64,000 bases of DNA, from positions 1,925 through 65,924 of the forward strand of contig LCFM01000004.1 in assembly GCA_000999025.1 (NCBI GenBank). The letters run 5' to 3'. Numbering within the stretch: the stretch's first letter is position 1; every line of letters begins with the position of its first letter. Shown here piece after piece: positions 15,197-50,820 of this stretch. Made by a program: the position numbers and the translations under genes. This stretch comes from Parcubacteria group bacterium GW2011_GWA2_43_13. GTDB taxonomy: Bacteria > Patescibacteriota > Patescibacteriia > UBA9629 > GWA2-43-13. Below the pieces are notes generated by a model. It searched no databases, was not told where the DNA came from, and saw only the letters and a list, made by a program, of their open reading frames with translations.

Positions 15197-15293
15197 AGTT
15201 ATTTTGAAAATATTTCCCACACATGCAGGCCGAAAAAATAATAAGAGATTAATTCAGCTCCGACTGCTATAATTGTGATAATGAGCGGGGTTT

Positions 15294-21857: not shown

Positions 21858-21864
21858 AAAATCA

Positions 21865-24610: not shown

Positions 24611-24860
24611 GGGCACAGCGCGATCCTCCTCGTTGTGGGGGTAATAAAAACACTTCTGAAGTATCAAAGAACATACCCCCAATGATCAAAATCCTACTTA
24701 AAACAAGTATCTTTGTCAAACATACAATGAACAAAAATAATCAACAATTTCATTTAACCACCTTCCTCCCCTTGGCACAAAAATGGCTATTGGTAAACAA
24801 AAACCACACCAACGAAATGATGCGGTTTGAAGGCGTATTACTTCATGCCCTTGCTTTTTG

Positions 24861-25547
24861 CTATTGCAACTGCTCTCGCTTTTTCAAATCACTCAAAATT
24901 TGCTCAAGTTGGTCTTTTTCCGGCAATCCGGAAATTTCTACATCACCAATGATGTAATACGGCGTTGCATCAACACCCAATGCCTGGCCTTCTGATATAT
25001 CCTGCCTGATATTGCCGACATATCTGCCGGACTCCATACACACTTGAAAACGATCAATGGGCATACCAAGCTGGCGGGCAAGCAATATCATGCCCTGCTG
25101 GTTCAGTGCCACATTTCGACGGAACAGTTCATCATGAAAATCCCAAAACCTTCCCATTTCCGCCGCGCATCGAGCCGCGTTATGCACAACTGTTGTGCCG
25201 GGATGCGACTGTTCAACAGGGAAATCTTTCCACACAAGCTGAATATCGTTCGGATACGAAGAAAGGAGTTCATTGATAATCGGCGCCGCTTGCGCGCAAG
25301 CTGGACACAAAAAATCGCTGTATTCAACAATTTTCATAACAGCAGTGTCAGGTCCTTTGCGTATTGTTGTTTTGTCAATGATTGGCTCAGAAATATTTAA
25401 ACGATTCGAAGAAGATGGTTGTTGCGTGTTTTGTCTTTTCAAAAACGAGGGTATGCCGAACACGGAAAAAGCGAATGCAGTAATAACCGATATCGCTATC
25501 AGAATACATAACGCTATGCCAAGTGTAGTTAATGATTCTTTTTTCAT
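24861..25547 (-). CDS. DsbA-like thiol:disulfide oxidoreductase, membrane-anchored
   Basis: N-terminal TM helix; thioredoxin-fold YSDFLCPACAQ (CxxC). Confidence 0.75.
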   Translation of the reverse strand: MKKESLTTLGIALCILIAISVITAFAFSVFGIPSFLKRQNTQQPSSSNRLNISEPIIDKTTIRKGPDTAVMKIVEYSDFLCPACAQAAPIINELLSSYPNDIQLVWKDFPVEQSHPGTTVVHNAARCAAEMGRFWDFHDELFRRNVALNQQGMILLARQLGMPIDRFQVCMESGRYVGNIRQDISEGQALGVDATPYYIIGDVEISGLPEKDQLEQILSDLKKREQLQ

Positions 25548-25574
25548 ACTCAACCCCCTCTTTATCTCCTGCAA

Positions 25575-25603
25575 CGGAGACGCCCCAGGGGGGCGTCTCT
25601 ACA
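25575..25603. repeat. palindromic element family A
   Basis: ggagacgccccaggggggcgtctctac between the DsbA-like and TolB-like genes. Confidence 0.6.
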
Positions 25604-25625
25604 ATACATTTTTTATATATCAATG

Positions 25626-26924: not shown

Positions 26925-26987
26925 AAAAACATCTTAAATACCATCTTACCATGTCTTAACTTATCATACTATATGATGATTTTTAAC

Positions 26988-28748: not shown

Positions 28749-28779
28749 ATATCAATACAATTAACCCACAAACCACTAC

Positions 28780-33848: not shown

Positions 33849-33860
33849 AGAAAAAATAAT

Positions 33861-33905
33861 GAATACCTCCCCTTATCCCATCCTTATAAAGGAGGGAACA
33901 CGAAA
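33861..33905. repeat. palindromic element family B
   Basis: gaatacctccccttatcccatccttataaaggagggaacacg. Confidence 0.55.
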
Positions 33906-33914
33906 GATGGTCGC

Positions 33915-34610
33915 TTAAAATGATTCAACTTGCACTTTTTCTATTTCATGCATTTTTTGCGAATCAACAAGTTCAGGATTATAGGTTGAGTAAAATAATT
34001 CTATCAAACCTTGCGTATCCAGCATAATCGGCGTCAATCCCATACCCGCAAGTCCGGACATAACATAATCAACTCTTTTCATAAGAGAATCTCGGTACGA
34101 AGTAAATGTTTTTTGAGAAAGACGAATAACTTTACTGGGGGTAAAAATCTCACTCATTCGGGAAAAAAATCCTTTTTGCTTGTCAGAACCGGGTGCGTAG
34201 GAAATGACCGTAAAAAATTTTTTGCCCATAATATCGCCTAATCCAATCAGCTCTTTGATAAAATTGATATACTCAACGGTTTGCGCGCGCAATAAATCAT
34301 TTGAATGTTTGTTAATATACTCCTCAAGCTCTGCGATATACGCGTCAATATTCAACGGTCGGGATTGAATCACGATTTGGAGCGAAAAATTAATAGAATT
34401 TAAAAATCCAACATAGCCGCCAACAATCGCTTCTTGCTCCTCCTCTGATTTTAACGCAAAATTAATAGATGAAACCATTAATACAGAGCGCAATGTACCA
34501 TCTTTTAACACAACAACGTCATCACGAATCTCGGCAATATCCAAATACTGCTGTGTTGACGCTTTAGGTTTATTGCCTTGAAGTTGCTTTGATTTCATAA
34601 CGGGTAACAC
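33915..34610 (-). CDS. VirB4 N-terminal-domain-like protein
   Basis: 231 aa; YLDIAEIRDDVVVLKDGTLRSVLMVSSINFALKSEEEQEAI..FLNSINFSLQIVIQSR resembles the N-terminal region of VirB4-family proteins but has no ATPase motifs. Confidence 0.35.
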   Translation of the reverse strand: MLPVMKSKQLQGNKPKASTQQYLDIAEIRDDVVVLKDGTLRSVLMVSSINFALKSEEEQEAIVGGYVGFLNSINFSLQIVIQSRPLNIDAYIAELEEYINKHSNDLLRAQTVEYINFIKELIGLGDIMGKKFFTVISYAPGSDKQKGFFSRMSEIFTPSKVIRLSQKTFTSYRDSLMKRVDYVMSGLAGMGLTPIMLDTQGLIELFYSTYNPELVDSQKMHEIEKVQVESF

Positions 34611-34631
34611 TAAAAACTCTAAATATGGTAC

Positions 34632-35141
34632 TTATGCCTTCCGGCCCTGCGTAATTTCAGCGTGCAAATCTGTTTTATATCTTCCGCCAGTATCAGCCAT
34701 TAAAGACAATTCAGAAAGACGCGAATGCGTTACTTGCGACTTTTTCACTACCTGGGGAGCAACCATGTGCGATGTCTTTTTATCCTGATGGCTCGCGACC
34801 GCGTGAACCACTGTCATGCCTTTATTCCAAATTCGTTTAGACGGCCGTTTGAGTGTTTGCAACATTCCCACAATAAAAACATGGAATGGCCTGCCGTTTA
34901 CTTTCACGAATCCGAACAACGCGACCGTAGCTAAAATACCGATGGCAAAAGCGATAAATATCGGCAATACGAAAATTTTATAACACACAAAAAGAAACAA
35001 CCCGCCGATAATCATGATAATAAATTGACGAATCGTAATCGGTCCGATAATTTTATCTTCTACATCAATAAATTGTGGAACTACATACTGCTGTGGCATA
35101 CTGCATGAAAATAACAAAATCCAAATATCAAATGACAACAA
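34632..35141 (-). CDS. PrgI/VirB3-like small T4SS membrane protein
   Basis: VPQFIDVEDKIIGPITIRQFIIMIIGGLFLF followed by two TM helices, the PrgI/VirB3-like pattern; the start may be the internal Met ending at 35099. Confidence 0.5.
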   Translation of the reverse strand: MLSFDIWILLFSCSMPQQYVVPQFIDVEDKIIGPITIRQFIIMIIGGLFLFVCYKIFVLPIFIAFAIGILATVALFGFVKVNGRPFHVFIVGMLQTLKRPSKRIWNKGMTVVHAVASHQDKKTSHMVAPQVVKKSQVTHSRLSELSLMADTGGRYKTDLHAEITQGRKA

Positions 35142-36671
35142 TTACTCTAACTCAGTATTAAAATCAGCGATGGCGTCAAATTCTTCTTGCGTTAATCCAT
35201 TCGACCCATCTTCGGATATAATCTGCGAAACCGACTTTGCTCCCTGCATTGCGCGATTACCAATAGATACATACTGTTTATACAACGGCGATTGTCGCCA
35301 TTGTCGAACCGCCGCGAGCCGCTTGTCATACGATTGTTGCGCCATGGTCGTTATTTCATGTTGGACACGTGCAAAAATATCCCGAATACCATGCGGACTC
35401 ATGCGCACATCATCCAATGAAATCGTTCCCAACTGCTCTACTGTTCCCATAACTTGCTGTCCCATCGGCCGAACCGGCGCAATATCCTGCATGTTCGGCT
35501 TTTGCGTATCCACTATTTTTCGCACAGGAATTTTATTTCCACTATTCCCTGTTTGAACGGATACCCCTTGTTGTTGCCCGTCAATGCCTGAAACCGCAGA
35601 AGGCGTAAACGCATCAAGTGCAATGGAAACAACATCAGGCCTGTTTGTTGCGGATTGCAACGCCTGCTGTTGAGACGCGTCATGGGAGGCAGTGACAGAC
35701 GGCACAACAGAATCCCGTGCTGATTGAGATGGAGCTGTGGGCGCAGTATCTTTATGCTCGCTTGAAAGCGATTGAGCCAACACCGATGGGGTTGGAAACG
35801 GCTCTTGTGGAATACTCTGCGCGGCCGGATAATGATCTTCTATTTCTTGAACTATCTGTTGCGCTGTCTCTTCAGGTATCTCTAATCCTCCTATTTTATG
35901 TCCCCGCACAAGCAAAGCCAATGTCTGTTTTTTTGTGCGCAATCCTTTTATTTGCGCCGCAAGTACGCTTCCAAATCGTTGAATACGCAAGTCCTCTTCA
36001 AATTGAAGAGAATATTTATGCATCAGCGCCTCTGCGATTTTTCGATAATCAAGAATCACCGCGCTTTCAGGAACCATTTTCCGATGCCAATCAATCTCCT
36101 TCGCGTCTTGAGGATCAAAATGATGAGTGAATGAGTCCCCTCGCTGTTCAGATAATAATATTTTATGCAAAGCGACTGATTGCGCCTGTTCATTCACTTG
36201 GGGGTGAAATTGGACCTTTTGGATATCATCTACTAAAGACATGTCTTGTAATGCGTGTTCGTCTGTCGATTCACTTTGAACTTTTGAAAGATCATACTCA
36301 AGCGCGGCTTCAATAACAGCTTTATTATGAGGATTACCCTCGGAAAACAGGTGTTCTATAAACTCATCACTTTGCTCATCTGACACCATATTCAAGCGTC
36401 TTTTCATCCGTTCGGCAACAGGAATATGGTATGCCTGACTGACAGCAGATATATCCTGCTTAAACAAATCGCTCACCTCTGCATCAACAAGCAATGGGAG
36501 TGCTACGATTTTAAGCGGAGCAACCCAGGTTTTTGCTGTTTCATCCGTATCCAATCGCAATTCCTGCCACAGCAGATGCGCTTTGGCAGTTTGATTCTTT
36601 TTAATCACTTCTTTTATCTCTTCAATTTTTGTTTCTGATAGCATACAGCAATCCCAATATACGAATGACAT
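35142..36671 (-). CDS. hypothetical protein (T4SS-locus associated)
   Basis: 509 aa with S/Q/A-rich central low-complexity segment; no recognisable motif. Confidence 0.4.
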   Translation of the reverse strand: MSFVYWDCCMLSETKIEEIKEVIKKNQTAKAHLLWQELRLDTDETAKTWVAPLKIVALPLLVDAEVSDLFKQDISAVSQAYHIPVAERMKRRLNMVSDEQSDEFIEHLFSEGNPHNKAVIEAALEYDLSKVQSESTDEHALQDMSLVDDIQKVQFHPQVNEQAQSVALHKILLSEQRGDSFTHHFDPQDAKEIDWHRKMVPESAVILDYRKIAEALMHKYSLQFEEDLRIQRFGSVLAAQIKGLRTKKQTLALLVRGHKIGGLEIPEETAQQIVQEIEDHYPAAQSIPQEPFPTPSVLAQSLSSEHKDTAPTAPSQSARDSVVPSVTASHDASQQQALQSATNRPDVVSIALDAFTPSAVSGIDGQQQGVSVQTGNSGNKIPVRKIVDTQKPNMQDIAPVRPMGQQVMGTVEQLGTISLDDVRMSPHGIRDIFARVQHEITTMAQQSYDKRLAAVRQWRQSPLYKQYVSIGNRAMQGAKSVSQIISEDGSNGLTQEEFDAIADFNTELE

Positions 36672-36770
36672 CCTAATCTACACATACAACGAATACGTAT
36701 GTCATTATTTACACTATTCGTATCATTCGGATGTATTCGTAGATTAAGATAACAGATCTATTATACCACA
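36650..36770. repeat. structured intergenic repeat, family C
   Basis: tacgaatgacatcctaatctac..cattcggatgtattcgtagattaagat. Confidence 0.6.
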
Positions 36771-36777
36771 CAATTCT

Positions 36778-37398
36778 TCACATCTGACTCACCACACACT
36801 CAATCATCCTACCTGCTTCATCTTCTGCAACATGGCACTGGTCAACAAGAACCTGCGCGAGCGCAAGCCGAACCTGCTCTGTTTTATTTCGTTCACCAGC
36901 AAGGAGTTCTGCAAAATCAGGCAACATAAGCCAGCGATCAATTTCGCCGGCATTCGCCAACACAAACCCAGCCGATACAACGCGAAGAGCGGCGCATTTC
37001 TGTTGAGCTAAAATCATTTCTTTCACTATCTTTGATATATCTCCGCCTGTAGCGAAAAGTATCGTTTGCGCCTCTTGCGCAATAAGGCCTTGCACCCTTG
37101 AACTCTCTATTGCTTCGCGTGATAGCCGTATCATTCTTTTGATATCTATGTCATTGAGCATCTGCTGGAACGCCACGCGATTTTCCTCACTCAATCCATA
37201 TTCCTGTTCTAAGACGCGTTCGCTATCGCTGAATTGCATGACTCCTATAATCAGCCGAGTTATGATTTCATAGACCGGCACGCCTGTTTTCCGCTTTATC
37301 GCTTCAGTACGGTTGACCACTGCCGGCTGACTCAAAAAATCATGCACTTCTTGCGGAAGCCGATCTAATGTTTTCAGTTGTTGATCATTCAGCGGCAT
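36778..37398 (-). CDS. hypothetical protein (T4SS-locus associated)
   Basis: 206 aa soluble; no recognisable motif. Confidence 0.4.
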   Translation of the reverse strand: MPLNDQQLKTLDRLPQEVHDFLSQPAVVNRTEAIKRKTGVPVYEIITRLIIGVMQFSDSERVLEQEYGLSEENRVAFQQMLNDIDIKRMIRLSREAIESSRVQGLIAQEAQTILFATGGDISKIVKEMILAQQKCAALRVVSAGFVLANAGEIDRWLMLPDFAELLAGERNKTEQVRLALAQVLVDQCHVAEDEAGRMIECVVSQM

Positions 37399-37412: not shown

Positions 37413-37481
37413 TGTAGAGACGGGGTTAACCCCGTCTCTACACATGATGAGATAGCCAATCAGCGGAAACCCCGTCTCTAC
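37413..37481. repeat. palindromic element family A (two units)
   Basis: gtagagacggggttaaccccgtctctac..aaaccccgtctctac; overlaps the stop codon of the upstream gene. Confidence 0.6.
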
Positions 37482-40400
37482 GCGGAAGTGTCTTGGCTTT
37501 GAGGTACAGATTCTTTCGTTTCTGGGGCAGAAGGCACTTCTTGAGTGCTACTTGTTTCTGTATCTGATGAAGCTGGCTGTGTGCTCTGGGTGGTTTGATT
37601 TTCCGCGACTGTTCCGATTTGCTCTGCTGTCTCGGCTCCTTGGCGAAGAATGGTACCTTGTCCCTCTTGAGTTTTCGCTTGACTGTCTTTCATAATCTCT
37701 TGCGTTCTTCGAGTTGTTGTCACTTGCACACGTGATTGCCGTGTCGCTCTATCACTTGCCTGTCTTCGTGTTGTTTGAGCTTCTTTTTTCTCCTGTTGCA
37801 ATGCCGCGGCCCCTGTCGCCTGCACTGTTTCACTCATCTGTTCTGCTCCTTGCATAACTTGTTCTGCCACATCTCGTAATGCGTCACCCACATCAGCAGA
37901 GCCGGTCTGCGCTTCCGATGATGAAACGCTCGGACTCCCTATTTCTTGATCAACTTGCTCTGAATCAAGACGAGCGCGGAATGCGGATTGTTGCTTTGCC
38001 GAAGCAGGTGGCGAAAGCGTACCGGATTTAAGCACTGATTGCATAAAACGCATTGACGGATCCTGGCTTTGCTCAACCATGGTTTTCATTGCATCGTTCA
38101 GCTGATACGTCGCGTCGTCTTTCTTTCCATATCGTGTCGCGTTGACCAATGATGTGCTTAAAAATTCATCTGCGATTATTGCTTCAGGCGGTTCTGCTCC
38201 ATACGTACCTTTATATTCTTCTGTTATTTTCTGCTGTACGCCAGCTTTTTGATCACCCAATGCATTCCAAAATTGCATCAGCACATCTTGAGGCAATTTC
38301 CCAACAAAGCTGTGCATTTTTTCTTCAAGCCCTGTAAGATATTGTTCTTGGCCCCCACGCTCGCCTTGATGTAAGTTTGCATCTGTATTAACAATCCGAA
38401 CAGTGCCTGATTTTTCCAGCCCTTGCCGAGCCAGCGCGCGTTCCGCTTCGCTATATCCTTGAGATGCCATCTTCTGGTCAAGCGCGTTGAGAAGTTTTTC
38501 TAATGTCTGCTGATCCTGTGGGTTTGCATCTTGAACATGAAGGGTCGCGCCAGCAACATCTTTCATGCCAGCGACATGTAATATATCTTTATCAAGATAT
38601 AATTTCGGGTTGCGCGTCTCTAACCCTTTTTGCTGTTGAGTAATCACTGAATCAACTCCACCAATTCTGTCTTGCGGTTTTCGTGTATCTTCAATCTGAA
38701 TGCTTTCGGCATTTTTAAGATACTGTTCAAACGCCTGAAGTTGCGGGCCAACAACCCCTTGCTCTTGCGATTGCTTTAATAAATCCGGTAAAAACTTTGC
38801 AATATCACCGCGTGACAACATGTCCTGATTTTTAGCAATACCCCATTTTTCTTTATCAATCCGCAGTGCTGGATTTATATTGTTGTTGCGCCCCTGCAAT
38901 CCTTGCAGTTTATCCTGGGCTCGACGTTGATCATCCTGCACCTGCATCAATGCTTCACCGCCTTCACCACGATCTAACAAATCACGCTGTTGTTGTATTG
39001 CTTGATCTGCCTCTTGTTGCGCGCCGTCTATTTGGCTTGATATGGTATCTTTTTCCTGCATCTGCTGAACAAATGTCTGCGCTCCGATTTCTAATCGCTG
39101 TTTGCCCTGATCCTGAACAATCACATTCTGCGCCGCTATTGTGACATTACCCATGTTTCCACCCACCACCCCCTTCTCAACTTTTTCTGTTTTCTCTTTC
39201 TCTTCTCCATCAAGACGAAACATATCAAAACGACCAGATGTAGGTGACGCCTTACTGTCCGCAAAGGTTTTACTGTTTTCTAATCTACGTTGCGTCGTCT
39301 CAATTGCTCGCACATCCTCATCTTTCAAAGCAGAATTCTTCACATACTTCCCAGTAGCGTCCTTAAGATACTTCCCTGTAGGATCTTTTTGATAAATGTC
39401 ATGATTATCTTTATCTAAATTGACTGCGGCTTTTTGAAGATTAGTGCCTCGTTGAGCCACTTCGTGTAATCGCTTAATCCCTGTTAATGCTTCTCCCTGT
39501 TCGTCAGCGCTTCCAGTCTCGGTGATGTCTATTAACTTCTGCATCATCGCGCGGAGTTGTTCTGAATCTTTGATATCATCAGGATCCGATACATCTTGCG
39601 CCCACTTTACCGCATCGGACCCTTCTAATGTATGGTATGTCTCAGCAATAGCCGCCTCTTTCTTTGCCCTCCCCATTGGAGTAATTTTCTTCCCACTAGC
39701 AGTACGCGCGATAGTACTTTGCATCTTCGCACTTTTTAGTGCCTGAACTCGCTCCGTTGCTTTCTTTTTATATCCAGCTCTGTTTTTTGACATCGCAAGC
39801 CCAGTACGCTCTGATACGGCACGAACTCCGGTAAACTTTGCAAGTTGCCCCCAACCACCACGCGCGCCAGCGACATTATCAACCCCTTTCTGAAGCCACT
39901 TTGCACGGGCAAGAGTCCCTCCTGCAACTTTAAATGGCGCTTTAAGCGTACCTTTCAACGCCCTCCCTCCCCCCTTCAACACCGCCCCTCCCGCGCCCTG
40001 TAACTTCCCCATCATTGTGCCGGCGAATTTTCCGGCAATACCGGATGTTTGACCTGCGTATTTTAATGCCATCCATAACACGCCAATAGAAATCACAAAA
40101 CTCAACATGTTCACAGGGGACCCAACTGAAGACACTCCTGCAGATAAATCACCTGTTGCTCCTGTTATAGAATCAAACGTACTATGCGACGTCCCCATGA
40201 TTGCAAACGAAAGCCAGAGAAAAAATGCTAAAATCGGGCCCATGGGAACATATTTGCCAAATTCAGTCATCCACTGGCTTGCATATTTTTCACCAAACGG
40301 CACTGCCCGCATCACAAAAAATACCGGTGAGGTAATTGTTAAAAACCATAAAATAACAATACGAGTAACAAAAACCAAAAGATATACAAGAACTGTAACA

Positions 40401-41056
40401 ATTGCGACAATAAGCATGACTATCGCCAAAAGATACGCGCCTAAAACTTCCCCGCTATTCCCTCCTACAGCATTGGAAAATTGTATCATCTCTCTAAGCC
40501 CCAGCGCTTCTGTCATATTTCCTGCGGCGGCACTTTTGTACGCGTTAAAAAACATCATAGTAAACACATGCGCAAAATCAATCGCAAGCCCTACTATCGT
40601 TTTGCTGAAATTAACCAATATCGCGGCAAGCAACACTTTGCCCAGCATTGATTTGTAACTATATTTTTGGACATTAAAGATCGTTCCAAACGCAATCATC
40701 ATCATAAAAATAATAAACCCGACATTCAATATATCTCTCATCACAAGCCACCCCTTAATAACAGCTGGTTGATAAATAATATTATTGTATGAAGCAATCT
40801 GAATGAGAAAAGAAACTATAATAGCAAGTATTTTCCCTAATAACCATACAATACTTCCCAAGGTGGCATTTATAATACCATTAATTATTTCAGCTACCAA
40901 AGCATGCGCTATCGCAGGAGTTGCAAAAAAGATAGCCACGAAAAATACCGCCACTAAACACAACACAGCCGCTTGTGTGCGACTTAAAAATGGCTGTTGA
41001 TTTTTTATACAAAAAAATTCTTTCATCCGGAATGAGATAATTCTCGCTTCATACAA
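37478..41056 (-). CDS. VirB6/TrbL-like polytopic T4SS membrane protein with ~800-aa disordered C-terminal extension
   Basis: 1192 aa; ~8 TM helices in the first ~400 aa; the rest is a Q/E/T/A/K-rich low-complexity region. Confidence 0.5.
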   Translation of the reverse strand: MYEARIISFRMKEFFCIKNQQPFLSRTQAAVLCLVAVFFVAIFFATPAIAHALVAEIINGIINATLGSIVWLLGKILAIIVSFLIQIASYNNIIYQPAVIKGWLVMRDILNVGFIIFMMMIAFGTIFNVQKYSYKSMLGKVLLAAILVNFSKTIVGLAIDFAHVFTMMFFNAYKSAAAGNMTEALGLREMIQFSNAVGGNSGEVLGAYLLAIVMLIVAIVTVLVYLLVFVTRIVILWFLTITSPVFFVMRAVPFGEKYASQWMTEFGKYVPMGPILAFFLWLSFAIMGTSHSTFDSITGATGDLSAGVSSVGSPVNMLSFVISIGVLWMALKYAGQTSGIAGKFAGTMMGKLQGAGGAVLKGGGRALKGTLKAPFKVAGGTLARAKWLQKGVDNVAGARGGWGQLAKFTGVRAVSERTGLAMSKNRAGYKKKATERVQALKSAKMQSTIARTASGKKITPMGRAKKEAAIAETYHTLEGSDAVKWAQDVSDPDDIKDSEQLRAMMQKLIDITETGSADEQGEALTGIKRLHEVAQRGTNLQKAAVNLDKDNHDIYQKDPTGKYLKDATGKYVKNSALKDEDVRAIETTQRRLENSKTFADSKASPTSGRFDMFRLDGEEKEKTEKVEKGVVGGNMGNVTIAAQNVIVQDQGKQRLEIGAQTFVQQMQEKDTISSQIDGAQQEADQAIQQQRDLLDRGEGGEALMQVQDDQRRAQDKLQGLQGRNNNINPALRIDKEKWGIAKNQDMLSRGDIAKFLPDLLKQSQEQGVVGPQLQAFEQYLKNAESIQIEDTRKPQDRIGGVDSVITQQQKGLETRNPKLYLDKDILHVAGMKDVAGATLHVQDANPQDQQTLEKLLNALDQKMASQGYSEAERALARQGLEKSGTVRIVNTDANLHQGERGGQEQYLTGLEEKMHSFVGKLPQDVLMQFWNALGDQKAGVQQKITEEYKGTYGAEPPEAIIADEFLSTSLVNATRYGKKDDATYQLNDAMKTMVEQSQDPSMRFMQSVLKSGTLSPPASAKQQSAFRARLDSEQVDQEIGSPSVSSSEAQTGSADVGDALRDVAEQVMQGAEQMSETVQATGAAALQQEKKEAQTTRRQASDRATRQSRVQVTTTRRTQEIMKDSQAKTQEGQGTILRQGAETAEQIGTVAENQTTQSTQPASSDTETSSTQEVPSAPETKESVPQSQDTSA

Positions 41057-41142: not shown

Positions 41143-41199
41143 CAGAGACGCGACGATGCCACGTCTCTAACAAAGACGCCCCATCGGGGCGTCTCTACA
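41143..41199. repeat. palindromic element family A (two units)
   Basis: gcagagacgcgacgatgccacgtctct..aagacgccccatcggggcgtctctac. Confidence 0.6.
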
Positions 41200-41211: not shown

Positions 41212-44200
41212 CTACTCCTGAATCTTGACTGGTAAAGAAAAGAACGTGTTATCGTTCTGATCGCAGTCCGATCCCCAATTCCCCGCCCCACTGGCTGGTT
41301 CCGAGATATTGTCTGCGCCATTGCACCATCCCCAGTTATCAGTCACACGAATGCGAATCTTAATATCCGTACCAACAACACCTGAACCATATACATGCGT
41401 GTACCGATGTGGGCTTGCCATATCGCGGCGCTGATCAATGGCAAGATTTGTCTGGCGGGTAAAACTGCCATCTCCCCAGTCAATTTCTATGGCCTTAATC
41501 GGCAAATGATCAATAGGAACATTTGTTGTAAATGCCAACTGAACTGATCTTTGCTCGCCGATGCTAACCACAGGAGTAGGAGTAATAGCAGATTTTTGGC
41601 CAATCTTCACCCCATTCGCCTGCACTTCTAAAATTTGAGGAGCATAATACTTACATGTCCCTTTCCCCTTATCACAAGAAGAACCCAACGCGCAAGAAGA
41701 ATCCAACGCGCAAGGAGAACCCAACACGTCGGAGCAGAACTGCCGATTAGAGGAACAAACCAACATACCACGCTTATCCACTACTCCCCCTTCAGAGCGA
41801 TACCCTTGAATACCATCATCCCACTTAAATCGCTCGAATATCTTACTAAACACACTGAAAATTCGATTTAATCCAGTAGATGCAAGCGTTGTAGATGCAA
41901 GCGTTGTGGAAGGCGCCACAATAGTTGTTGGCGTACATACTCCTGGTGGTTCATCTGCTGGTTTCGGCGGTGTTGATGTCTCGCAATTGCTTGAAATTTT
42001 ACATGATTTCCCAAGCTTATCTTTTGCGCCCTTCGTACACACATTCCCTGCGGGACATGATCCGCCTGGGCAATCTTTTGGCGTAAAACACACACTTCCG
42101 TCTCGCGCGCCACCAACACAGGTATTAATGGTTGCATCATACGCAAATGCCATATTGCCCCTGTGCGTTTCTGTGCATAATTTTGCCTGCTCGTTGTTTT
42201 GCGTATCTCCACTGCTAAACAACAATAATGGACTTTGAATAATTTGATCAGGCACAAAATCGTTATTTGTATCAAGCGTCCTTAGAATATCTGACGGCCG
42301 ATCAATAGCAGGCGCGGCGCTGAACGGCAAACACTGTGTGTTCACGCCAAATTGAACAGGTTTTTCAAGCGTATACGTTCCCTGCATCCGCGACGCCCAT
42401 GCCGCATTTGTTCCATCATCATCAACTGTTTTAACCAATTCCGCGCAATATAATGGACGTGAAATGCGCTGTACCTTCTTTAATGTGGAAACACCTTCAA
42501 GGACAAGGAAACGATCCATCACCCTATCCCGTACACCAGCATGGGTAGTTAATTTAGTAAAACCATCAAATACCGCATCAGAACTGCCGGTACAGTATGG
42601 TTCTGCACAATATGATTCCCGCGGGTCATATCCAGAATGATCATCATCATCACAGAAATTAGTATCGTCAGACCATTCATAAATAGCCGCCTTATGGTAT
42701 ACCTCTAATAATTTATCTGTATAACACGAAGAATCTGAAGAACTTGCGCAATCACTTGATGAAGAAAATTGCAGGGTTTTAATCCGGTTATCATCTGATG
42801 ACTCTTTTCCTGTCACTTCTAAACATCCGCCTTTGACCTCGCCGTCGTCAGCACCTGTCGACTCCACTCCAATCCGTCCGCTGGCGTTAGCGGTCAAATG
42901 TGGATTAAACACATTCACTGAATCACCTAATAGCCAATCATCTTCTGATAAACTGTAAAACGCTGGTTTAGGATCGCTTGCAATAGCAAACTTCCAGCAT
43001 CCGGCATCTTTATCAAGCGGGTTCCCTCTAAACGCAACGCACACAAAACGAGGCACATCATATCTTGGCGGAAGTGGCTTTTCTTTTGCCACGGCGCAAT
43101 GGTATACAGGTCCCGGACCTTGGTAGCCAATATTTTCCGGCTTGGTGAATATATTGGTTTCGTCTTTAATCACATCAACCGGATACCATTGAATACACAC
43201 CGCAGGGTTTGCCGGATCACGCTCCATGCACAACCCTTTCCATCCGCGCACATACTGGCCTCTATCATCTATAGCATCGCACTGTAAAGCAGATGATGCA
43301 GGATACAGCCGGCATGACGGAGCGGAATCAAGCAACGGTCGCTCGGTCTCTTTTGCCACGCGCAGTACCGGCCGAATTTGAATATCATCAAACACAACTG
43401 ATCCTGTAATATCCTGCATAAGGTCAATACGCAAGGAACGCGTTGTGCTGTGCGTTGTGAAATCTTTTGCAAAAAACTGCCACTGATTCCCAAGAGTAAA
43501 ATTCGATGTATCCACAGCAAGTACAGAACCAACTGCTCCGCTATTCCCGCTCTCCGGCGCTCTATCATTATTAAATTGAACAACTTTCACCAACGTCTGC
43601 GCTCTATCAGTTCCAACAGTGCTCTGGTCAAGGTTTCGCGTATTCACCCACCCTGAAACCACATACGTAGTATTCCCCCGAATGTTTGACACGCGCGTGG
43701 ACATGCCGGTTTGCTCTCCTTCAGAAGACGCGACAGTTTGAAGAAACGCGGCAATATCCACATCAGATCCGCGAATCAAATCACACTTCCCGTCGCACAC
43801 ACTTTGCTCATACCAGATGATATCTGAATACTCCAAACGCGATGTATTGGAAAATACCACATCATCAATTATTAATGCAGTAGCGCCTGAATCAGCGCGT
43901 TGGAACCTCACCGCGAGTTTGCGCGATTCTACTGAATCTACTTTTAAAAATGTGATGGTAAATGTTTTCCATGTATCGCCAGTTGATGATACATCTAATC
44001 CTGAAACAAAAGCTCCCAATCCAGTGCTTCCGGTATCATAACTATTTTTAAGTTCATCTTCATTAGGATTTTTATGGAGTTCAACCTTTAATGTGCCTGT
44101 GCCTTTTATTTTTCCTTTTATAGAATATGACTCACCTGCTTTCATCTCATCTAAAACCATTGCCACTTCCGCTTTCTCTACCCCGCACCGCGCGCCCAAA

Positions 44201-47200
44201 CCCGAACAATCAGTGTCCTTTGTACACACTGCGCCTTTGTTTGTTCCTGCGTCACCGTCACATACCCTTTCAGATGAAGTAATTTTTCCAATCTGAAACG
44301 CCTGCCCGCCATCTGAAGAAACAAGCTTGCAGTTCGTGCACCCAACGCTTTTATACCAATTCACAGGTCCGGTTGGTTGGGATGACGCGTTCGGCATCTG
44401 GTTTAATACATTATTCGGTACATTCTGTTCAAAATTAAACACCCGAGTCAAACCGTTATATGGCACAAAACGAGTATTGCGCAAAGAAAACACTCCTTCT
44501 GTCTTTTTTATAACATCAACAATCACAAATGTATTACTAAAATCGCCACGAGGGACATCAATGATATGCGAAAATGATTTCTTTTCCGACGGCGCAAGCG
44601 TAATGGTTTCTGTTGTTGCCGTTGTGTCTAACGCCTTCTCATCACCAGCCCTCCACCCTTCTCGCGTTACATCATTCGGCGCGATGTACTTGCCTGCGGC
44701 GTCTTTACCAGCATAGAAGAAACGATACCGTATATCAATACTTCCAGGCGCGCCTGCGTATGATTGCGCTTCACCGGTAAATACAAATTTTCCAGGCACT
44801 CCAAAAAGTTGTATATCAGCGCTGTATCGGTTTTGAAGAATCTCACGAGATGAAGCATCAGATGTTACCGACCCGATACGCAAGGATCGGACACCGCTTT
44901 TTACCTCTTTGGTATCAAGCGAACACGACCCCTCGCACGGTTTTTGAATAATCCAGCCATCAGGAAAATTATCCTCGTTTACATCTTTTTCAAAATCAAA
45001 GTTCAGTACACTTGCTGAATCACCCTCAACGCTCATAGCGTTTGGATGATAACTTCCCGAAATTGTTTGACCTGTATTAAATACCAGCCCTGGTCGAGCG
45101 AGCCCGCTTCTGCGCGTAAATTCTTCAAAATCACCTCCTCCTGTAAATCCGGTACCAATAGAATCAGCAATTGCCGGTTGCGCATAAATAAATGACCGGG
45201 AAATATCACTATCATCAACGATGTCCGTACATTCGCCATTCTCGCCCCAGTCGCGGCACGCAAAACGATCAAAACACACCTGTTTCTCTTTTCCATCCGC
45301 GCCAATAGTAGTCGCGCCTGAACGGCACTCCAGCCATTCGCCACATACTCGATCATTTTCCACCCGAACCGATTCCGCCTGCCTTTGCGCGCCTTCTGTT
45401 GCCACGCGTTCCCAGTATTCTTTCCGATTTTCATTTTCAAACGGTAATGGAGCGATAAATGTTCGGAATGCACGGCATGATCCAAAACTCAAATCAATAT
45501 CAGTGCACGCCGCTCCATTTTGAAGGCCAGTACCAAGAGTAATAAATTGACTGGTAAGATCTTTTTCTTCCCGCACTTCAGTACATGACGCCTCTTGTTG
45601 AGGACACAATCCGGCATATCCGTCGCTTGGTTGCGTGTACTCATTAGATGAACGTGCGCCTATTGGCTGAAGAGTAGCAACAGGACATGGCGAAGATGTT
45701 CCTTTTATCAGCCACGCATCGCCATTAAACTCACACACCTGTCCTTGAGGCGCTTTAAATAACGCAGTCCCGCTCTCCACAAGTTTGCCGTCTTGATTCT
45801 TTTTCATCACAGTATACTGCTGGCACATAGAACTCTTTTCACTGCACACAATGCGGTCATACTGATCAGGCCTCTCAATCAACGCAACGGGATTGAATCC
45901 AACAAGCGCGGGACTCAACGCTCCATCTGACTGTTGTTTATTTTCTATATTTGGTTGCGCATACAGCATACATCCCATTTCTGATGATTGGCACTGCGCT
46001 TCCGGCGTCACTTTCACAACTTCAACAAAATCCTGTGGTATAAGGGTCAGCCGATCCTCGCCTTCAAAGTGAACTTCTTCTTCAATGGCAGTATTATTAT
46101 TGGTATTAATAAGCGCTTCGCATCCCACATCACTTTCAGGGCATGGTTGGCTGAATTTATACAGATACACATTCGTTTTTGCGCTTACCCCCGGCATGCG
46201 CGTTGAATACGCGGAACATCCTTGATATGCCTGATCAATGCATATCTTCGGAACAGGAGACCACGAATCCCGCACCCGATAAAACACATCAGTGCGAGTG
46301 CTCATTTGAATCTGATCAATCAATAACCGCGCTGAACCTGCATCCGGATATGAAAAATACATAACAAATTGATTGACGCTCTGCATCCCTTCATCAGATA
46401 ATGCATTTTTATACACCAGCGGTCCAAGCGTCGCGGTATGCCATTCATTATCAGGAATCAGCAGTGTCTCTGACACATCTGTTTCAGCAGGGCCGTACGG
46501 AAGCGTAACACGCGGATACTGATCAATGGAGAGAAATGACGAGACAGCGCTGGCAGAACTTATTTTATACAGTATGGTTACGGAATACTCCCTGCCTGTT
46601 TGTAATATACTGGAAAATCCGGTTGATGGAAGTTTTGCCCCACCAGTTCCTGATGGAAGAGCCAATGACTGCGTTTCCCCATCCGACTCTGTGGCAAGCA
46701 TTCCGCCTTCCCATGGCGATGTTCCTGTATTGAAATCGCTTTTAAAAATCATTTGAACATTTCCGGCTTTAGGCCCTTCATATCTTCTGCACATATTGTC
46801 CGTGGCAGAACATTTCGCGCTTGCGGACGGCAGAATATTCATACGCTCGCCTGTGGTTGTTCTCCGTAAAAGACGGCAATCATTTGAAACCGGTACGGTT
46901 TTACTTTGAAGGATAAACACGTTTCGACCTTGAGAATCAATAAATTCACGGCAATCCGGATTGGTTGCTGTAGTATCAGGACTGCACACTGCCTGCGTTG
47001 CAACAGTATCAGCGCACACTGTTCCTTCATCGCGCATAGCAGGATTTGTGCATGGACTGTTATTGATATTGCTCTGTAACAAATCAACAGCCCGCAGTTG
47101 GAAGCCGAAAATATCAGCGCCTTCCCAGACAAAATACCGTTTCTTTACTCGATCCTCACTATCCGCAACTGTTTGGCTTACATTAGCGCACCATCGTGTA

Positions 47201-50200
47201 TTGGTATAATATTCCCGGGCTTCAGATGTTCCAAGATTTTCCGCATTCACATTAGTAAACTCTTCGCACCCAACTGCAGTGGCATTGCATACCTTGCCGC
47301 CATTATCTCCAATCGGAATAAAGCTCACAGTTTTATATCCAGGATCAAGCCGGGTCGGACTTTCGATATAATCATTAAACCCGACACACTGGGCAACGCA
47401 TTGGTCCCCTTGCACTAACTTCGCGTACACGGTAACAGGGTTGCTTGTATTGTGCGGAATAAACGCCTGACAACCGATTGCTTCTGTACCCCGACACATC
47501 GCCCGCTTGCTGTTTAAAAATAATTCTTCTGTAGAGCGAAATCCTTCAACTTCTGTCGAATAATCACCTTGTTCAGCATTCGCGGTAATAAGTTGAGTAA
47601 TCTGGCCTGCCGAAGGTAAGATAAGTTTATCTTGATCATCTCGTTTTGGCACAACGCGCACATAGCGCTGACATCCGGCAGATGTCGGTTTGCATGACTG
47701 CGCTTTCGCGTTTAAATGAATAATCGCATTCGCATCAGAGCCGGCAACACTGCACGTGCTTACCAATTCTCCGCCTGCATCACGAATTTCGCATGAATCC
47801 TCTCCCACGCCAATCTGACATCGCGCCCCTCCGGCAACTGTGCACCAAAAAACCCCATCTGCTTCTGTTCCGGGGATCGAGGTAAAGGCGCTATCAAGTA
47901 ACGGAGTTGAAGTATTTTCCAATTGTATGGCAATTGAAGAAGATATTTTAGGAACACTCATTCCCTTTACATCAGGGTTTGACACGCGCAATAACTCGCG
48001 GCATCCAATACTAGAATCATCTTTGCATCCAGTTGTATCAAGCGTACTCTTAAGATACGACACCTGCTGTTTCTTGCTATCTTTAAAGGTCTCGCACGAA
48101 GCATATTCAGGCCGACATGCTTTATTTTGATCTCCAAACTGCCACTGATACTTCTCAAGCGTGCAATACCCATAGCGCTTGCAATTTCCTTTATCATCTT
48201 CTAATACGCAGGTCTGCTCATCTGCGCAATAATCAGCGCGTTGAATGGCAATACTTTTTGCTTTTTTAGGATCTGATTTATTTTCTTCTTCTTGGCGCGA
48301 AATAATTTGCTCACCAGCTCCAGTAGCCGCGCACTGCACCTGCGGCGCCTTTAACACCCATTGAGGATTAATCAATCCAAAGTATGGATTATCGGAAAAC
48401 GGAACAACTTTCCCTGCTTTCCCTTCACGTGGCACAACAAGCGTGGATCCACCACATACGATATCTGCAACAGAAAGGACTGTTACTGTCCCAGGATTCA
48501 CCCCAACAACTCGTGTAGTACACTGAACCGCGTCATCGTCATTCGGAACAAAAATAAGCGACTGGCCGACATAAAAATCACGAGTGTAATCCTTACTGCT
48601 TGGCAGATTAATCTGCATACCAGTCGCGTTCTCGCTTGCAGAAGCACCCTCGATTGGAAGGACATTTTTTGCCGGTTTATCAAACGCGAACATTAAATCA
48701 CCCAACGTCTTTGGACTGTCATATCTATTGATATACTCGGCCGCTAATTCCCATGAAACCGGTATAATCCGATAATGGCGCAACAGCGCTAAACTGCGAT
48801 ATGGGTATCCATTGCCGACTTTCGGCTCTATATCTTTTTTTTCATATCCGAATTTCCAATCAGCATGAAGAAGATTTTTCTCAATCGCCTCTTTGACAGT
48901 CAACTCCTGCTTGACTGCCTCGGCAAACCCGGAATCAATAATGTTTTCATTATATTCCGTAAACCCGTTTCCGCTTGATGACGAACGCGATAGCAAGGTA
49001 ACCGCATCAATAGATGTGGCCGATTTATACGCCGGCGCGGCAAGCGAGGCAAACCGTTTTTGCGCGACTTTCACTCCGCCAAGCGCCGGAATCGCGCCCT
49101 TTTGCGTTGCTTGCTGTGCTGTGGCAAGATTGGTATTCAACCCGGGTCCGTCATAATACTTTTTAACCAATTGCGAAACAAGCGTATTGGTAAAAATACC
49201 AACCGCATCTGCAATCGCAACGCCGGTGTATTGAGCAAATTGATTATTCGATTGTTTCAGCGATTCAACGCCAAGCGCATTCACTAATGTTGACGGCGTT
49301 TTAACAACCCCGGAAACCGTTGAGGTAATACTGTCTGTTACGCCTTGGAGACCCTGAAAATACTTACTCTTTTCTACTTCTTTCGCCGCTTTGTTATTCG
49401 CTTCTGATGTCAGTTTTAACTGCGCGCCTATAGGATTGCTTTCCGGATTAAACATTTTGGATAAATCAGCAAGTTCGCTCCCAGGAGTTGTCGGCTTTAA
49501 CGCTCCTCTGCGACGGTCATCATTCATGGTATCCACCATGCCATACAACTCTTTAAACCACCCGTCAAACCGATTAAGGTATTCGTTAATCTGTGTTTTG
49601 CATACGTCTTGTCCTTCTGTTGCTCTTACGCAAAATGGTTGAATAACAGTAAAATCCTTATTAGAAAAAAGAGTGGAAAAAAAGTTTTCTTGCACTGCAT
49701 AGCCATATGTGGCAGGAGTAGCTGGATTATTGGTCAAACTTTCAAGGTATTCAATATACTTCTCTGCCCCGGTAAACGTAGATGGTTGTAGAAATGATTT
49801 TGTTCGCTCTTGTTCGATCTGAAAATACAACGCCACTTCATTAGCCACTGTGGCGCATGGACTGTCTGGATCTTCTAAATACGACGCAGGACAAATTTCT
49901 TTACTGATATATATCTGCCGAAAATAGTCCTCAAGTTTAAGAGAATCACCATAATAAAGGTATCCAAAATTATATGTCTGAATATAATTTTTATTCAGCA
50001 ACACGCCAGCATCAAGCATTGATGAAATAATGGATACAAATCGTTTATTCGCGCCTGCCTCATCTAATTTTTGCGCGCTTAAATCCTCAACCACTTTTGT
50101 TAATACATCTGTCGCGCCTTGCAGTGTTTCTCCGACTTTCAATAATCGAGCACGCGCCGCATCACCTATCTTTTTATCATTTTTGATAATATCGGTTATT

Positions 50201-50820: not shown

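Follow-up and report, generated by a model that had tools for sequence, protein, structure and literature searches.

A giant, probably disulfide-braced secreted protein of ABY1-type Patescibacteria: a conserved family and a candidate role in host contact

The window (the whole stretch of 64,000 nucleotides that was analysed) contains a single gene for a protein of 3202 residues, hereafter the giant, which by profile comparison belongs to a large, widespread and so far unnamed family. We propose that it is an adhesin for host contact, coupled to a module of T4SS origin, a reading to which we give slightly less than even credence; as the part that touches the host cell it is a reasonable but unproven candidate. 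That it may be a host-attachment or glycan-binding fibre, as put forward in an earlier note on this DNA, we infer from the sequence.

Patescibacteria account for a large part of the bacterial diversity that has not been cultured, and their presumed way of life is attachment to other microbes; to our knowledge, nothing is known of the contact molecules outside a few Saccharibacteria. The giant gene is among the largest in genomes of roughly 1 Mb, belongs to a conserved family and provides a concrete, testable candidate for host recognition in ABY1 lineages. Roughly 2500 conserved residues have no counterpart in Pfam, NCBIfam or PDB and merit family models and a structure. Should the giant merely be a structural envelope protein, it would still help to mark the lineage, and for a minimal genome it would be a remarkable expense.

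Results

Open reading frame and export signal

As stated in the earlier note, the gene is one unbroken open reading frame (Table 1), starting with ATG. The cleavable signal peptide claimed for it is supported by lysines at positions 2 and 4, a hydrophobic core (residues 5-23) and the predicted cleavage site AYA followed by Q (residues 27-30), of which A27 and Q30 are invariant among the relatives of the giant (alignment A1); the AxAQ motif is kept family-wide. The only further hydrophobic stretch (residues 778-796) lies inside a lineage-specific insert and is modelled as beta strands, with moderate confidence there. It is therefore not considered a transmembrane anchor, in line with the earlier claim that such an anchor is absent.

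The unusual length, together with a shorter form of 1878 aa in some clades, might point to an error of assembly or annotation (a chimera, or several genes run together), and a chimera had been named as the finding that would overturn the earlier reading. It is ruled out by an identical 2310-aa fragment on an independent contig and by relatives of 73%, 41% and about 25% identity whose colinearity with the giant starts at the N-terminus and extends as far as the C-terminal domain. Hundreds of full-length relatives are of similar size, and the GC content of the gene resembles that of the flanking sequence. The artefact reading is thus effectively refuted, and we give it practically no weight.

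Table 1. Features of the giant gene and its neighbourhood (window positions; residues refer to the giant).
Feature	Residues	Position	Strand	Remarks
Giant gene	1-3202	41212..50820	-	
Signal peptide	1-29	50734..50820	-	cleavage predicted after AYA
Family-conserved N-terminal segment	30-200	50221..50733	-	predicted helical
Lineage-variable helical insert	201-449	49474..50220	-	from BLAST coverage and identity
Family-conserved core	450-830	48331..49473	-	holds the sole confidently modelled domain
Cys-hairpin region I	831-1349	46774..48330	-	paired Cys, motif C-x5-8-[G]C-x2-[FY]
Module M1	1350-1530	46231..46773	-	CBM_4_9 / galactose-binding-like beta-sandwich by orthology
Cys-hairpin region II	1531-1929	45034..46230	-	conserved Cys pairs
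Module M2 (NFDFE)	1930-2125	44446..45033	-	lineage-specific, candidate fold
Module M3 (FNFEQN)	2126-2335	43816..44445	-	lineage-specific, candidate fold
Module M4 (WYEQ)	2336-2500	43321..43815	-	family-conserved beta module
Conserved block	2501-2600	43021..43320	-	CRLYP...GW.GYC.E.DP....C..WYP.D
Variable Cys/Ser/Thr-rich region	2601-3060	41641..43020	-	holds both short tandem repeats
Conserved C-terminal domain	3061-3202 and stop codon	41212..41640	-	IDWGDG ... H.Y.H.Y ... DNWGW
Terminator-like 12-bp hairpin		41143..41169	-	just 3' of the giant's stop codon; consensus match only
TSP3 partner, upstream		54588..55430	-	small single-pass membrane protein with bacterial TSP3 (Ca-binding) repeats; Pfam TSP3_bac, E 1.5e-8
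TIG/IPT surface protein, 1222 aa		50917..54585	-	between TSP3 gene and giant; Pfam TIG, E 1.3e-15; CoaZ repeat
Polytopic partner, 1192 aa, downstream		37478..41056	-	8 N-terminal TM segments, tail of ~860 aa, few Cys
Downstream T4SS genes		31899..37398	-	206-aa and 509-aa unknowns, PrgI/VirB3-like, TrsD-like, VirB4-like
PrgI/VirB3-like		34632-35141	-	
TrsD-like		33915-34610	-	
VirB4-like		31899-33848	-	
Two T4SS_pilin-domain proteins, 432-aa protein, DsbA		24861..30387	-	pilin-domain proteins Cys-rich (535 and 586 aa)

Cysteines and short repeats

The giant has 101 cysteines (3.15%), 100 of them in the mature protein; the earlier figure of more than 150 was wrong. The cysteine pairs described at the same time are real: most cysteines occur in conserved pairs 6-8 residues apart, and both the spacing and a hairpin motif exceed chance. 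Adjacent cysteines are separated by 3-12 residues in 48 cases (against 25.5 +/- 3.9, maximum 40, in 5000 random placements), and the giant has 15 copies of the motif C-x(4-11)-C-x2-[FYW], where shuffled sequences lead one to expect 1.6 (6 at most). The protein is probably disulfide-braced, to judge from this pattern.

In region I the cysteines are invariant in alignments of 5, 16 and 73 sequences. Region II contains the conserved pairs 1527/1535, 1560/1567, 1610/1617, 1659/1666, 1739/1746 and 1826/1832, with family coverage running to about residue 1750. Residues 2601-3060 show low family coverage and poorly conserved cysteines. Here we recovered the short C-terminal tandem repeats noticed before, both in the protein and as DNA arrays (TRF): TTLAS twice at residues 2972 and 2977 (15 nt x 2.1 copies, 41876-41907) and LGSPCA/LDSSCA/LGSSCD at 3033, 3039 and 3045 (18 nt x 2.8 copies, 41675-41725).

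Candidate carbohydrate-binding modules

Three segments had been described as CBM-like on the basis of the motifs NFDFE, FNFEQN and WYEQ, all of which are present (at residues 1940, 2128 and 2336, respectively); the modules of the giant open with the typical x-[FY]-D-F-E strand. Internal repeats are absent by self-BLASTP, and any repetition among the "repeated modules" is of a distant structural kind at best. The whole protein has no match in Pfam or NCBIfam, and none to CBM_4_9 (PF02018) at E<=1.

The relationship becomes visible through the relatives, 11 out of 16 of which match CBM_4_9 in Pfam (best E 3e-15). Family module FB of one of them (P0004) clears the gathering score (27.7 against 25.9 bits) and also matches Mann_GBD_bact, and M1 aligns with FB at 99.2% (hhalign, E 6e-19), whereas isolated M1 remains below that score (14.0 bits, E 0.068). 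Through these threshold-passing relatives M1, and M1 only, can be assigned as homologous to CBM_4_9; by orthology it is carbohydrate-binding-like, with putative ligand binding. M1 was not among the three segments listed earlier.

Isolated M2, M3 and M4 have no Pfam match. M4 aligns with family module FD (hhalign 99.5%, E 4e-22), which in turn compares to FB at E 5.5e-5 (probability 38%), so M4 appears distantly related to the CBM module. M2 and M3 are present only in P0002 and P0003; with M2 against M1 giving a non-significant hhalign E of 0.065 over 142 columns and M3 against FB giving 0.068 over 143 columns, neither has a discernible link to CBM_4_9. Of the earlier description it thus stands that the family has CBM_4_9 modules and that the WYEQ segment is family-conserved, but the NFDFE and FNFEQN segments are lineage-specific and matchless. 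The domain annotation proposed there likewise yields CBM_4_9 in relatives, though the giant's own modules stay below Pfam thresholds.

Identity to the 73% relative is lowest at residues 2000-2500, as well as at 200-400 and 700-800; the M3 region is among the least similar to P0002 (55% over residues 2201-2300). The number of modules varies between clades. This faster divergence and varying module number suggest adaptation to an external ligand.

Conserved core and structure models

Residues 30-200 are covered by 100-190 of 269 relatives (BLASTP) and modelled as long helices, with a pLDDT of just 25-57. The adjoining insert (201-449) has near-zero BLAST coverage beyond the closest relatives, and is 51-58% identical to P0002, whereas its flanks reach 85-96%. 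Coverage is highest for residues 450-700 (243-266 of the 269) and decreases past 700. A compact domain at about 627-827, with the motifs RHYRIIPVxWELA and NPxWVLKAP, reaches a pLDDT of 84-93 at model residues 601-690; a family profile of this domain (600-830) has no relative in PDB, and Foldseek returned nothing significant.

The CRLYP block is near-invariant in alignments of 16, 28 and 73 sequences. Invariant W, G, D, H, H, Y and DNW positions characterize the C-terminal domain (alignment A9), for which the only Pfam match at E<=10 is a 12-bit one to UnbV_ASPIC (E 0.15) and whose family profile has no PDB match at E<=10. A PKD identity is not supported: the likeness is limited to motifs (WGDG / H.Y / DNW), and no PKD profile matches at E<=10. 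The whole-family profile gave nothing useful against PDB.

Structure prediction per segment, as the earlier note had advised, produced two poor AlphaFold models. Residues 1352-2502 (model 1, 4 sequences) have a mean pLDDT of 36, with strands in the module regions and 10-residue block means up to 79 in M4; residues 28-1227 (28 sequences) reach 46, and only about 627-827 is confident. Consequently, we do not claim a fibre shape or a lectin site.

A widespread family

In an exhaustive profile search the family comprises 1331 clusters (50% identity), of which 1175 reach E<=1e-30; word-indexed homology searches, which returned 5 matches and then 1, strongly under-count it. Members typically measure 2500-2900 aa, have signal peptides and contain a median of about 3.6% cysteine (range 2.6-5.2%). 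At least 571 GTDB species carry a giant, mostly ABY1-type Patescibacteria, the titled carriers being Jacksonbacteria, Kerfeldbacteria, Komeilibacteria, Kuenenbacteria, Buchananbacteria and Falkowbacteria, and each locus gives one long match. CBM_4_9 apart, the family has no match in Pfam or PDB except for Dockerin_1 in 3 of 16 relatives; PGAP names among the relatives include 'dockerin type I domain-containing protein' and 'carbohydrate binding domain-containing protein'. Our literature search found no description of the family.

Gene neighbourhood

Directly downstream and on the same strand lies the gene of the 1192-aa polytopic protein, in which a TM scan finds eight hydrophobic segments (residues 31-331). 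Its N-terminal domain shares 36-40% identity with the proteins that follow the giant at five other loci and recurs at 45 of 80 GTDB loci. By a tally read off our table of loci, this partner accompanies the giant at all but one locus with a complete frame of >=2300 aa and enough downstream sequence, usually starting 130-320 nt past the giant's stop codon. The terminator-like hairpin sits between the two genes.

The earlier note placed the giant upstream of a VirB6-like gene. Adjacency, eight TM segments and a T4SS position were all found: topology and location (between the giant and the 206-aa, 509-aa, PrgI, TrsD and VirB4 genes) fit VirB6/TrbL. Homology is sub-threshold in one of seven proteins (the window protein and six homologues), namely the L008 homologue, which matches TrbL/VirB6 (PF04610) at 18.4 bits (E 0.0019, positions 4-177 of 215; cut-off 25.9 bits). 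The window protein itself has no match in Pfam, NCBIfam or PDB and none at E<=10 to PF04610 or to VirB6/TrbL/PrgH models, and its homologues give no VirB6/TrbL match in NCBIfam. By topology, position and that one match the partner is only weakly VirB6-like.

Upstream, a TSP3 homologue is present at 74 of 80 GTDB loci and in every context look-up that reaches that far (the L003 contig starts at the giant gene). The TIG/IPT protein is found at none of the 80 and is lineage-specific.

Downstream, the T4SS gene order is repeated in L003, and a homologue of the 509-aa protein occurs in L023 and L028, in the latter together with PrgI. PrgI, TrsD and VirB4 directly follow the giant only in this lineage: within 10 kb of the giant none of them occurs in L001, L004-L006 or L008. 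L007 and L009 contain too little downstream sequence for this comparison, and since the GTDB loci extend ~5 kb past the giant gene they provide no count of VirB4 adjacency. Other clades show conserved synteny with the housekeeping genes LeuRS, KsgA, AdoHcyase and MetK, in many species in the order LeuRS-KsgA-TSP3-giant-polytopic-...-AdoHcyase-MetK, an arrangement equally compatible with a core component of the envelope and with a factor in host interaction. In L004, L005, L006 and L009, pilin-domain and DsbA homologues are encoded 5-8 kb upstream of the giant; a DsbA homologue was found in the neighbourhood in every clade examined.

Discussion

Proposed role and alternatives

The T4SS of Patescibacteria is similar to that of monoderm conjugation systems, in most cases has no relaxase, and in a phylum-wide survey was found without adhesins such as PrgB (PMC12102498). 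A Saccharibacterium cannot grow epibiotically without its T4SS and several surface proteins that bind polysaccharides, and a role in protein export has been suggested for the Patescibacteria T4SS (PMC10633639). For large cysteine-rich extracellular proteins of CPR bacteria, a function in attachment has been suggested (PMC4736985).

Against this background, we suggest that the giant would be exported by Sec and then oxidised by the DsbA of its neighbourhood. From N- to C-terminus it would consist of the signal peptide, a mostly helical region ending in the compact domain and two stretches of cysteine hairpins, with beta-sandwich modules (one CBM_4_9-like, one family-conserved, two lineage-specific) interleaving with and following the hairpins; then come the CRLYP block, the variable Cys/Ser-rich linker and the conserved, presumably beta-structured C-terminal domain. 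The conserved N-terminal part could hold the protein on the surface non-covalently via the TSP3 membrane protein and the eight-TM, possibly VirB6-like protein. Retention at the surface is assumed here, because no anchoring or LPXTG motif is seen by eye in the translated C-terminus (...FFSLPVKIQE). The faster-evolving modules would project outward and bind surface glycans of the host bacterium, making the giant the contact or adhesion element of a T4SS-derived apparatus.

It might also be argued that the giant is a core scaffold of the cell envelope (S-layer-like or envelope-spanning) that maintains the integrity or shape of an ultrasmall cell, with neither a specific role in host recognition nor a connection to the T4SS. 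The single long match per locus, the deeply conserved housekeeping synteny, the many species, the strong conservation of the N-terminal core and cysteine framework and the missing VirB4, PrgI and TrsD within 10 kb in most clades all agree with this. However, S-layer proteins are usually much smaller, highly expressed and not typically built with CBM-like modules; moreover, the module region diverges faster than the core, the number of modules depends on the clade, and pilin-domain genes and possibly a VirB6-like partner stay linked. We consider a scaffold unlikely, although it deserves serious attention. Less likely still, in our opinion, is a cellulosome-like scaffold for harvesting polysaccharides, in which CBM and dockerin-like modules would tether the cell or enzymes for nutrients rather than for cell-cell adhesion. 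The CBM_4_9 and Dockerin_1 matches among the relatives, the corresponding PGAP names and the adjoining Ca-binding TSP3-repeat partner point in that direction, but neither the giant nor its conserved neighbours contain a glycoside-hydrolase, lyase or cohesin domain. The giant in the window has no dockerin match, those of its relatives may merely mirror Ca-binding loops, and only a small share of the 3202 residues can be annotated with Pfam.

Finally, the giant might be a secreted effector or toxin, or a T4SS substrate or extracellular conduit, delivered to or inserted in the host cell. In this lineage it adjoins a relaxase-less T4SS, a type of system for which protein export has been proposed (PMC10633639), and its long predicted helical N-terminal region could in principle contact membranes. 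Nonetheless, the classical Sec signal peptide suggests export independent of the T4SS, and its 3202 aa and roughly 50 putative disulfides make the giant an improbable candidate for translocation. Nor do most homologues lie beside VirB4. As there is in addition no toxin or enzyme domain and the C-terminus is conserved rather than polymorphic, we set this aside as a primary reading and regard it as very improbable.

The host-contact reading can be taken further. The giant, the TSP3 partner, the eight-TM VirB6-like protein, the cysteine-rich pilin-domain proteins and DsbA might together form the extracellular half of a repurposed T4SS, with the giant as the missing element for host recognition or bridging that replaces the unfound adhesin, and with the variable modules setting the host range of the ABY1 epibiont. 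This extension is speculative, and we doubt that it will hold in full.

Comparison with known systems

The CBM_4_9 or galactose-binding-like likeness lies in a module of the relatives that passes the threshold and is orthologous to M1; M1 itself is sub-threshold (14 bits) and Pfam matches none of the other three modules. While classical CBM4/9 modules are parts of glycoside hydrolases, those of the giant have no catalytic domain attached.

With PrgB or aggregation substance, the adhesins of MPF-FATA conjugative T4SS, the giant shares its nature as a large secreted surface protein beside PrgI/VirB3-, TrsD- and VirB4-type genes (in this lineage), its lectin-like module(s) and stalk-like regions and a proposed role in cell-cell contact. 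On the other hand, searches of the giant in Pfam, NCBIfam and PDB reveal no similarity to PrgB, and it is 2.5 times larger, has paired cysteines and shows no LPXTG by eye; most family members are not beside VirB4.

The giant adhesins of diderms (Marinomonas MpIBP, LapA, SiiE; RTX/Bap type) are of the same size class, modular and equipped with sugar-binding lectin modules. Ca-binding elements are common to both systems, here on the neighbouring TSP3 protein. Those adhesins are T1SS substrates with tandem BIg repeats, recognisably repetitive and without cysteine, while the giant has Sec-type export, no sequence repeats, no BIg or RTX match in Pfam and is probably braced by disulfides.

Compared by description, the cysteine-rich extracellular proteins of Peribacteria (PMC4736985) resemble the giant in CPR origin, signal peptide, large size, raised cysteine content, a genome-encoded enzyme for disulfide formation and a suggested role in attachment. 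That set is described as genes only, with about 7% cysteine and, in some, similarity to FG-GAP or to Myxococcus Cys-rich repeats; the giant family has 3-4% cysteine, a hairpin motif of its own and fixed gene partners.

The polytopic neighbour resembles VirB6/TrbL (PF04610) in its eight TM segments, large hydrophilic extension and location near PrgI, TrsD and VirB4. It differs in that six of the seven proteins are matchless and one scores below the Pfam cut-off; furthermore, in most genomes the polytopic partner travels with the giant gene and not with VirB4.

The exported protein and its family

The giant gene is one unbroken ORF of 3202 codons with an ATG start, and its GC content is that of the flanking DNA. 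At the N-terminus lysines 2 and 4, a hydrophobic core (residues 5-23) and AYA followed by Q (27-30) look like a Sec signal peptide; A27 and Q30 show no variation among relatives. The sole other hydrophobic stretch (778-796) sits in a lineage-specific insert, is modelled by AlphaFold as beta strands at moderate confidence and is no membrane anchor.

A word-indexed search returned only five relatives, which are colinear with the giant over its full length at 73%, 41% and ~25% identity. Because of this colinearity an assembly chimera or artefact, a possibility raised in the earlier note, can be excluded. With an exhaustive HMMER profile search (query: residues 420-1360) the family comprises 1331 clusters at 50% identity for E<=1e-3 and 1175 for E<=1e-30, and a scan of GTDB species representatives places it in at least 571 genomes. 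Members are typically 2500-2900 aa long, all have a signal peptide and their median cysteine content is ~3.6%; where the source names them, they are a 'hypothetical protein', 'dockerin type I domain-containing protein' or 'carbohydrate binding domain-containing protein'. Among the matches listed, informative titles point to Jacksonbacteria (nearest, at 48% identity), Kerfeldbacteria, Komeilibacteria, Kuenenbacteria, Buchananbacteria and Falkowbacteria, groups that belong to GTDB class ABY1. Many GTDB records with such a locus are titled 'uncultured Gammaproteobacteria bacterium' (TPA; L019, L022, L023, L026, L032 and others), almost certainly a mislabelling of these Patescibacteria-type loci.

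Cysteine pairs, modules and structure prediction

The earlier note had claimed more than 150 cysteines, but the count is 101 (3.15%). Exactly 100 are left in the mature protein, mostly paired 6-8 residues apart, and the pairs are kept in relatives. Gaps of 3-12 residues between neighbouring cysteines occur 48 times, where 5000 randomized placements give 25.5 +/- 3.9 and never exceed 40, and C-x(4-11)-C-x2-[FYW] is present in 15 copies against 1.6 in shuffles (maximum 6), most commonly as C-x6-GC-x-x-[FY]. The pattern fits a chain of small hairpins stapled by putative disulfides; a DsbA gene is found in the neighbourhood of the giant in the window. The sequence motifs quoted in the earlier note all occur where it had placed them, and its two C-terminal mini-repeats are tandem repeats in the DNA as well (15 nt x 2.1 and 18 nt x 2.8 copies).

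For the giant itself, searches of Pfam, NCBIfam and PDB sequences yield no match, and ~2500 of its 3202 residues are without counterpart in curated libraries. Among 16 diverse relatives, Pfam finds CBM_4_9 in 11 (best E 3e-15) and Dockerin_1 in three. We mapped the modules using family alignments and hhalign, and ran Pfam on isolated modules. M1 (residues 1350-1530), which the earlier note did not list, is the orthologue of family module FB (hhalign 99.2%). In relative P0004 this module scores 27.7 bits, above the CBM_4_9 gathering score, and also matches Mann_GBD_bact; isolated M1 reaches 14 bits (E 0.068) against CBM_4_9. M4 (2336-2500, WYEQ) is orthologous to the family-wide module FD (hhalign 99.5%), which is only distantly related to FB (E 5.5e-5, probability 38%). 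M2 (1930-2125, NFDFE) and M3 (2126-2335, FNFEQN) are present in the two closest relatives only and match nothing, the best hhalign hit being full-length and non-significant (E ~0.07). The beta-sandwich, CBM-like modules proposed earlier thus hold for the family and, within the giant, for the unlisted M1; they are plausible for WYEQ and unproven for NFDFE and FNFEQN.

Family-wide conservation covers residues 1-200, 450-720, 800-950, 1100-1750, 2400-2600 and 3050-3200, and the module region diverges faster. The conserved C-terminal domain (IDWGDG ... H.Y.H.Y ... DNWGW) resembles PKD in its motifs, an assignment that neither Pfam nor PDB profiles back. In genomes of the Kerfeldbacteria type the family is represented by a short form of 1878 aa, equivalent to giant residues 1 to ~1734. 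The family core therefore comprises the N-terminal region and the hairpins, together with the first CBM-like module. The short form is also observed in L012, L016, L020, L022, L025, L030 and others.

AlphaFold models of residues 1352-2502 (4 sequences) and 28-1227 (28 sequences) have a mean pLDDT of 36 and 46, respectively, and these weak models justify neither the shape nor the binding site of the glycan-binding fibre suggested earlier. The latter model shows, at low confidence, long helices for roughly the initial 570 residues; a single compact domain is predicted with confidence (~627-827, pLDDT up to 93), and its family profile finds no relative in PDB. Foldseek against PDB and viral models gave no hit at E<=0.001.

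Gene neighbourhood

Nine locus contexts and 80 GTDB loci were compared and agree with one another. In 74 of the 80 loci a gene upstream of the giant encodes a small membrane protein that spans the membrane once and carries Ca-binding repeats of the bacterial TSP3 type, with KsgA (67/80) and LeuRS (51/80) on its 5' side. The TSP3 ORF of the window measures 280 aa from the first ATG and its homologues 204-225 aa; alignments with three of four homologues start at residue 49, and judged from these the true start probably lies ~40 codons further in. Between the TSP3 gene and the giant the window has a TIG/IPT-domain protein, of which L003 shows a C-terminal fragment only; tblastn detects it in none of the 80 GTDB loci. 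It probably represents another surface protein, specific to this lineage.

Downstream of the giant, usually 130-320 nt past the stop, lies a gene for a polytopic protein with eight N-terminal TM segments and a low-cysteine tail of 500-900 aa, the N-terminal domain being 36-40% identical to that of the 1192-aa protein in the window. It was detected by tblastn in 45 of the 80 loci. When the tabulated loci are narrowed to those whose giant ORF is complete, measures at least 2300 aa and is followed by sufficient sequence, we read off a single one that lacks it. Among short-form loci it is found ~7.4-8 kb downstream in L018 and L029; in most, none is within reach. In most clades the polytopic gene is followed by a ~310-aa protein and then by PfkB, AdoHcyase and MetK, and no VirB4 is present within 10 kb of the giant. 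The 155-nt gap between the giant and polytopic genes of the window contains a terminator-like hairpin with a weak, interrupted T-tract (CGTTTTATGG), which suggests separate or attenuated transcription.

Features in the window and in loci of relatives
Feature	Locus	Position	Strand	Remarks
Giant	window	41212-50820	-	3202 aa
Polytopic partner	window	37478-41056	-	1192 aa, 8 TM
Hairpin	window	41143-41169	-	12-bp stem
TIG/IPT-domain protein	window	50917-54585	-	1222 aa, membrane-anchored, C-terminal CoaZ repeat
TSP3 ORF	window	54588-55430	-	
206-aa protein	window	36778-37398	-	cytoplasmic, no detectable family
509-aa protein	window	35142-36671	-	cytoplasmic, no detectable family
T4SS_pilin-domain protein	window	28780-30387	-	535 aa, unusually long, 30 Cys
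T4SS_pilin-domain protein	window	26988-28748	-	586 aa, unusually long, 26 Cys
Ornithine/DAP-type decarboxylase	window	23336-24682		between RecG/RadA and DsbA end
RecG; RadA/Sms	window	19728-23265	+; -	~1.6 kb from DsbA end of T4SS cluster
Restriction-modification pair; HTH plus SocA/Panacea gene	window	16472-18467, 14426-15220	-	MjaI-like endonuclease; N6/N4 methylase fused to staphylococcal-nuclease domain
Short form	L019	8912-14548		
Next ORF	L019	14545-18696		1383 aa, secreted, unrelated; 4-nt overlap with short form
Embedded pilin-domain homologues	L004	~1199-2293		
	L005	1-739, 1635-2471		
	L006	1257-2390		
	L009	1406-2443		

Relation to T4SS-type genes

After the polytopic gene, the window and L003 have the 206-aa and 509-aa unknowns and then PrgI/VirB3-like and TrsD-like genes. 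There the L003 contig stops, and the window continues with VirB4-like, two cysteine-rich T4SS_pilin-domain proteins and DsbA. A homologue of the 509-aa protein is present in L023 and L028, the latter also having PrgI. Where the arrangement is T4SS-adjacent, as in the window, L003, L023 and L028, PrgI and TrsD always come with the 206-/509-aa pair; elsewhere an unrelated ~310-aa protein replaces it. Other clades have pilin-domain and DsbA homologues 5-8 kb upstream of the giant. Direct adjacency to the T4SS core is therefore lineage-specific, but a looser connection with T4SS-type genes is more widespread.

Some pilin-domain homologues are located inside a pyruvate:ferredoxin oxidoreductase gene cluster ~8 kb upstream of the giant, where POR_N flanks them on one side and TPP_enzyme_C on the other. 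This odd placement recurs across several clades. Richness in cysteine when extracellular is common to pilin-domain proteins and the giant; cytoplasmic and membrane T4SS parts have 0-2 cysteines.

The polytopic neighbour had been called VirB6-like. Topology and position agree with this, but homology stays below threshold: among seven homologues a single one gives an alignment, over 80% of the TrbL/VirB6 profile, and its E of 0.0019 does not reach the cut-off; the window protein matches nothing in Pfam, NCBIfam or PDB.

Possible role

The giant has an export signal of the Sec type, cysteines paired in a conserved pattern, a core conserved at its N-terminal end and two membrane proteins as fixed neighbours. 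It might be argued that it is exported through Sec and then oxidized by DsbA, that the TSP3 and polytopic partners would hold its conserved N-terminal part at the surface, and that its variable beta-sandwich modules would extend to glycans on the host, making the giant the contact element of a T4SS-derived apparatus. We favour this reading tentatively, at somewhat less than even chances. In Patescibacteria the T4SS follows the monoderm conjugation type; it carries pilin arrays, usually has no relaxase, and no PrgB-like adhesin could be detected (PMC12102498). A Saccharibacterium needs its T4SS and several polysaccharide-binding surface proteins for epibiotic growth (PMC10633639), and large cysteine-rich secreted proteins of CPR bacteria were proposed as attachment factors (PMC4736985).

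The main rival makes the giant a core envelope scaffold with no part in host recognition, for which both the synteny with housekeeping genes and the missing VirB4 adjacency in most clades argue; we consider it rather unlikely. A scaffold for harvesting polysaccharides appears improbable, and an effector or conduit more improbable still. If both the T4SS link and the host-recognition role of the favoured contact element are true, the family is far more interesting. Giant modular surface adhesins with lectin-like modules are already known as a general kind; the literature searched holds no description of this family, nor of a fixed pairing of the giant with a TSP3-repeat protein and a possibly VirB6-like membrane protein.

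Other loci in the window

RecG and RadA/Sms beside the T4SS genes correspond to the arrangement described as specific to or typical of ABY1 (PMC12102498). A gene of the HTH plus SocA/Panacea antitoxin type is close to the restriction-modification pair, in a patch of low GC content (0.34).
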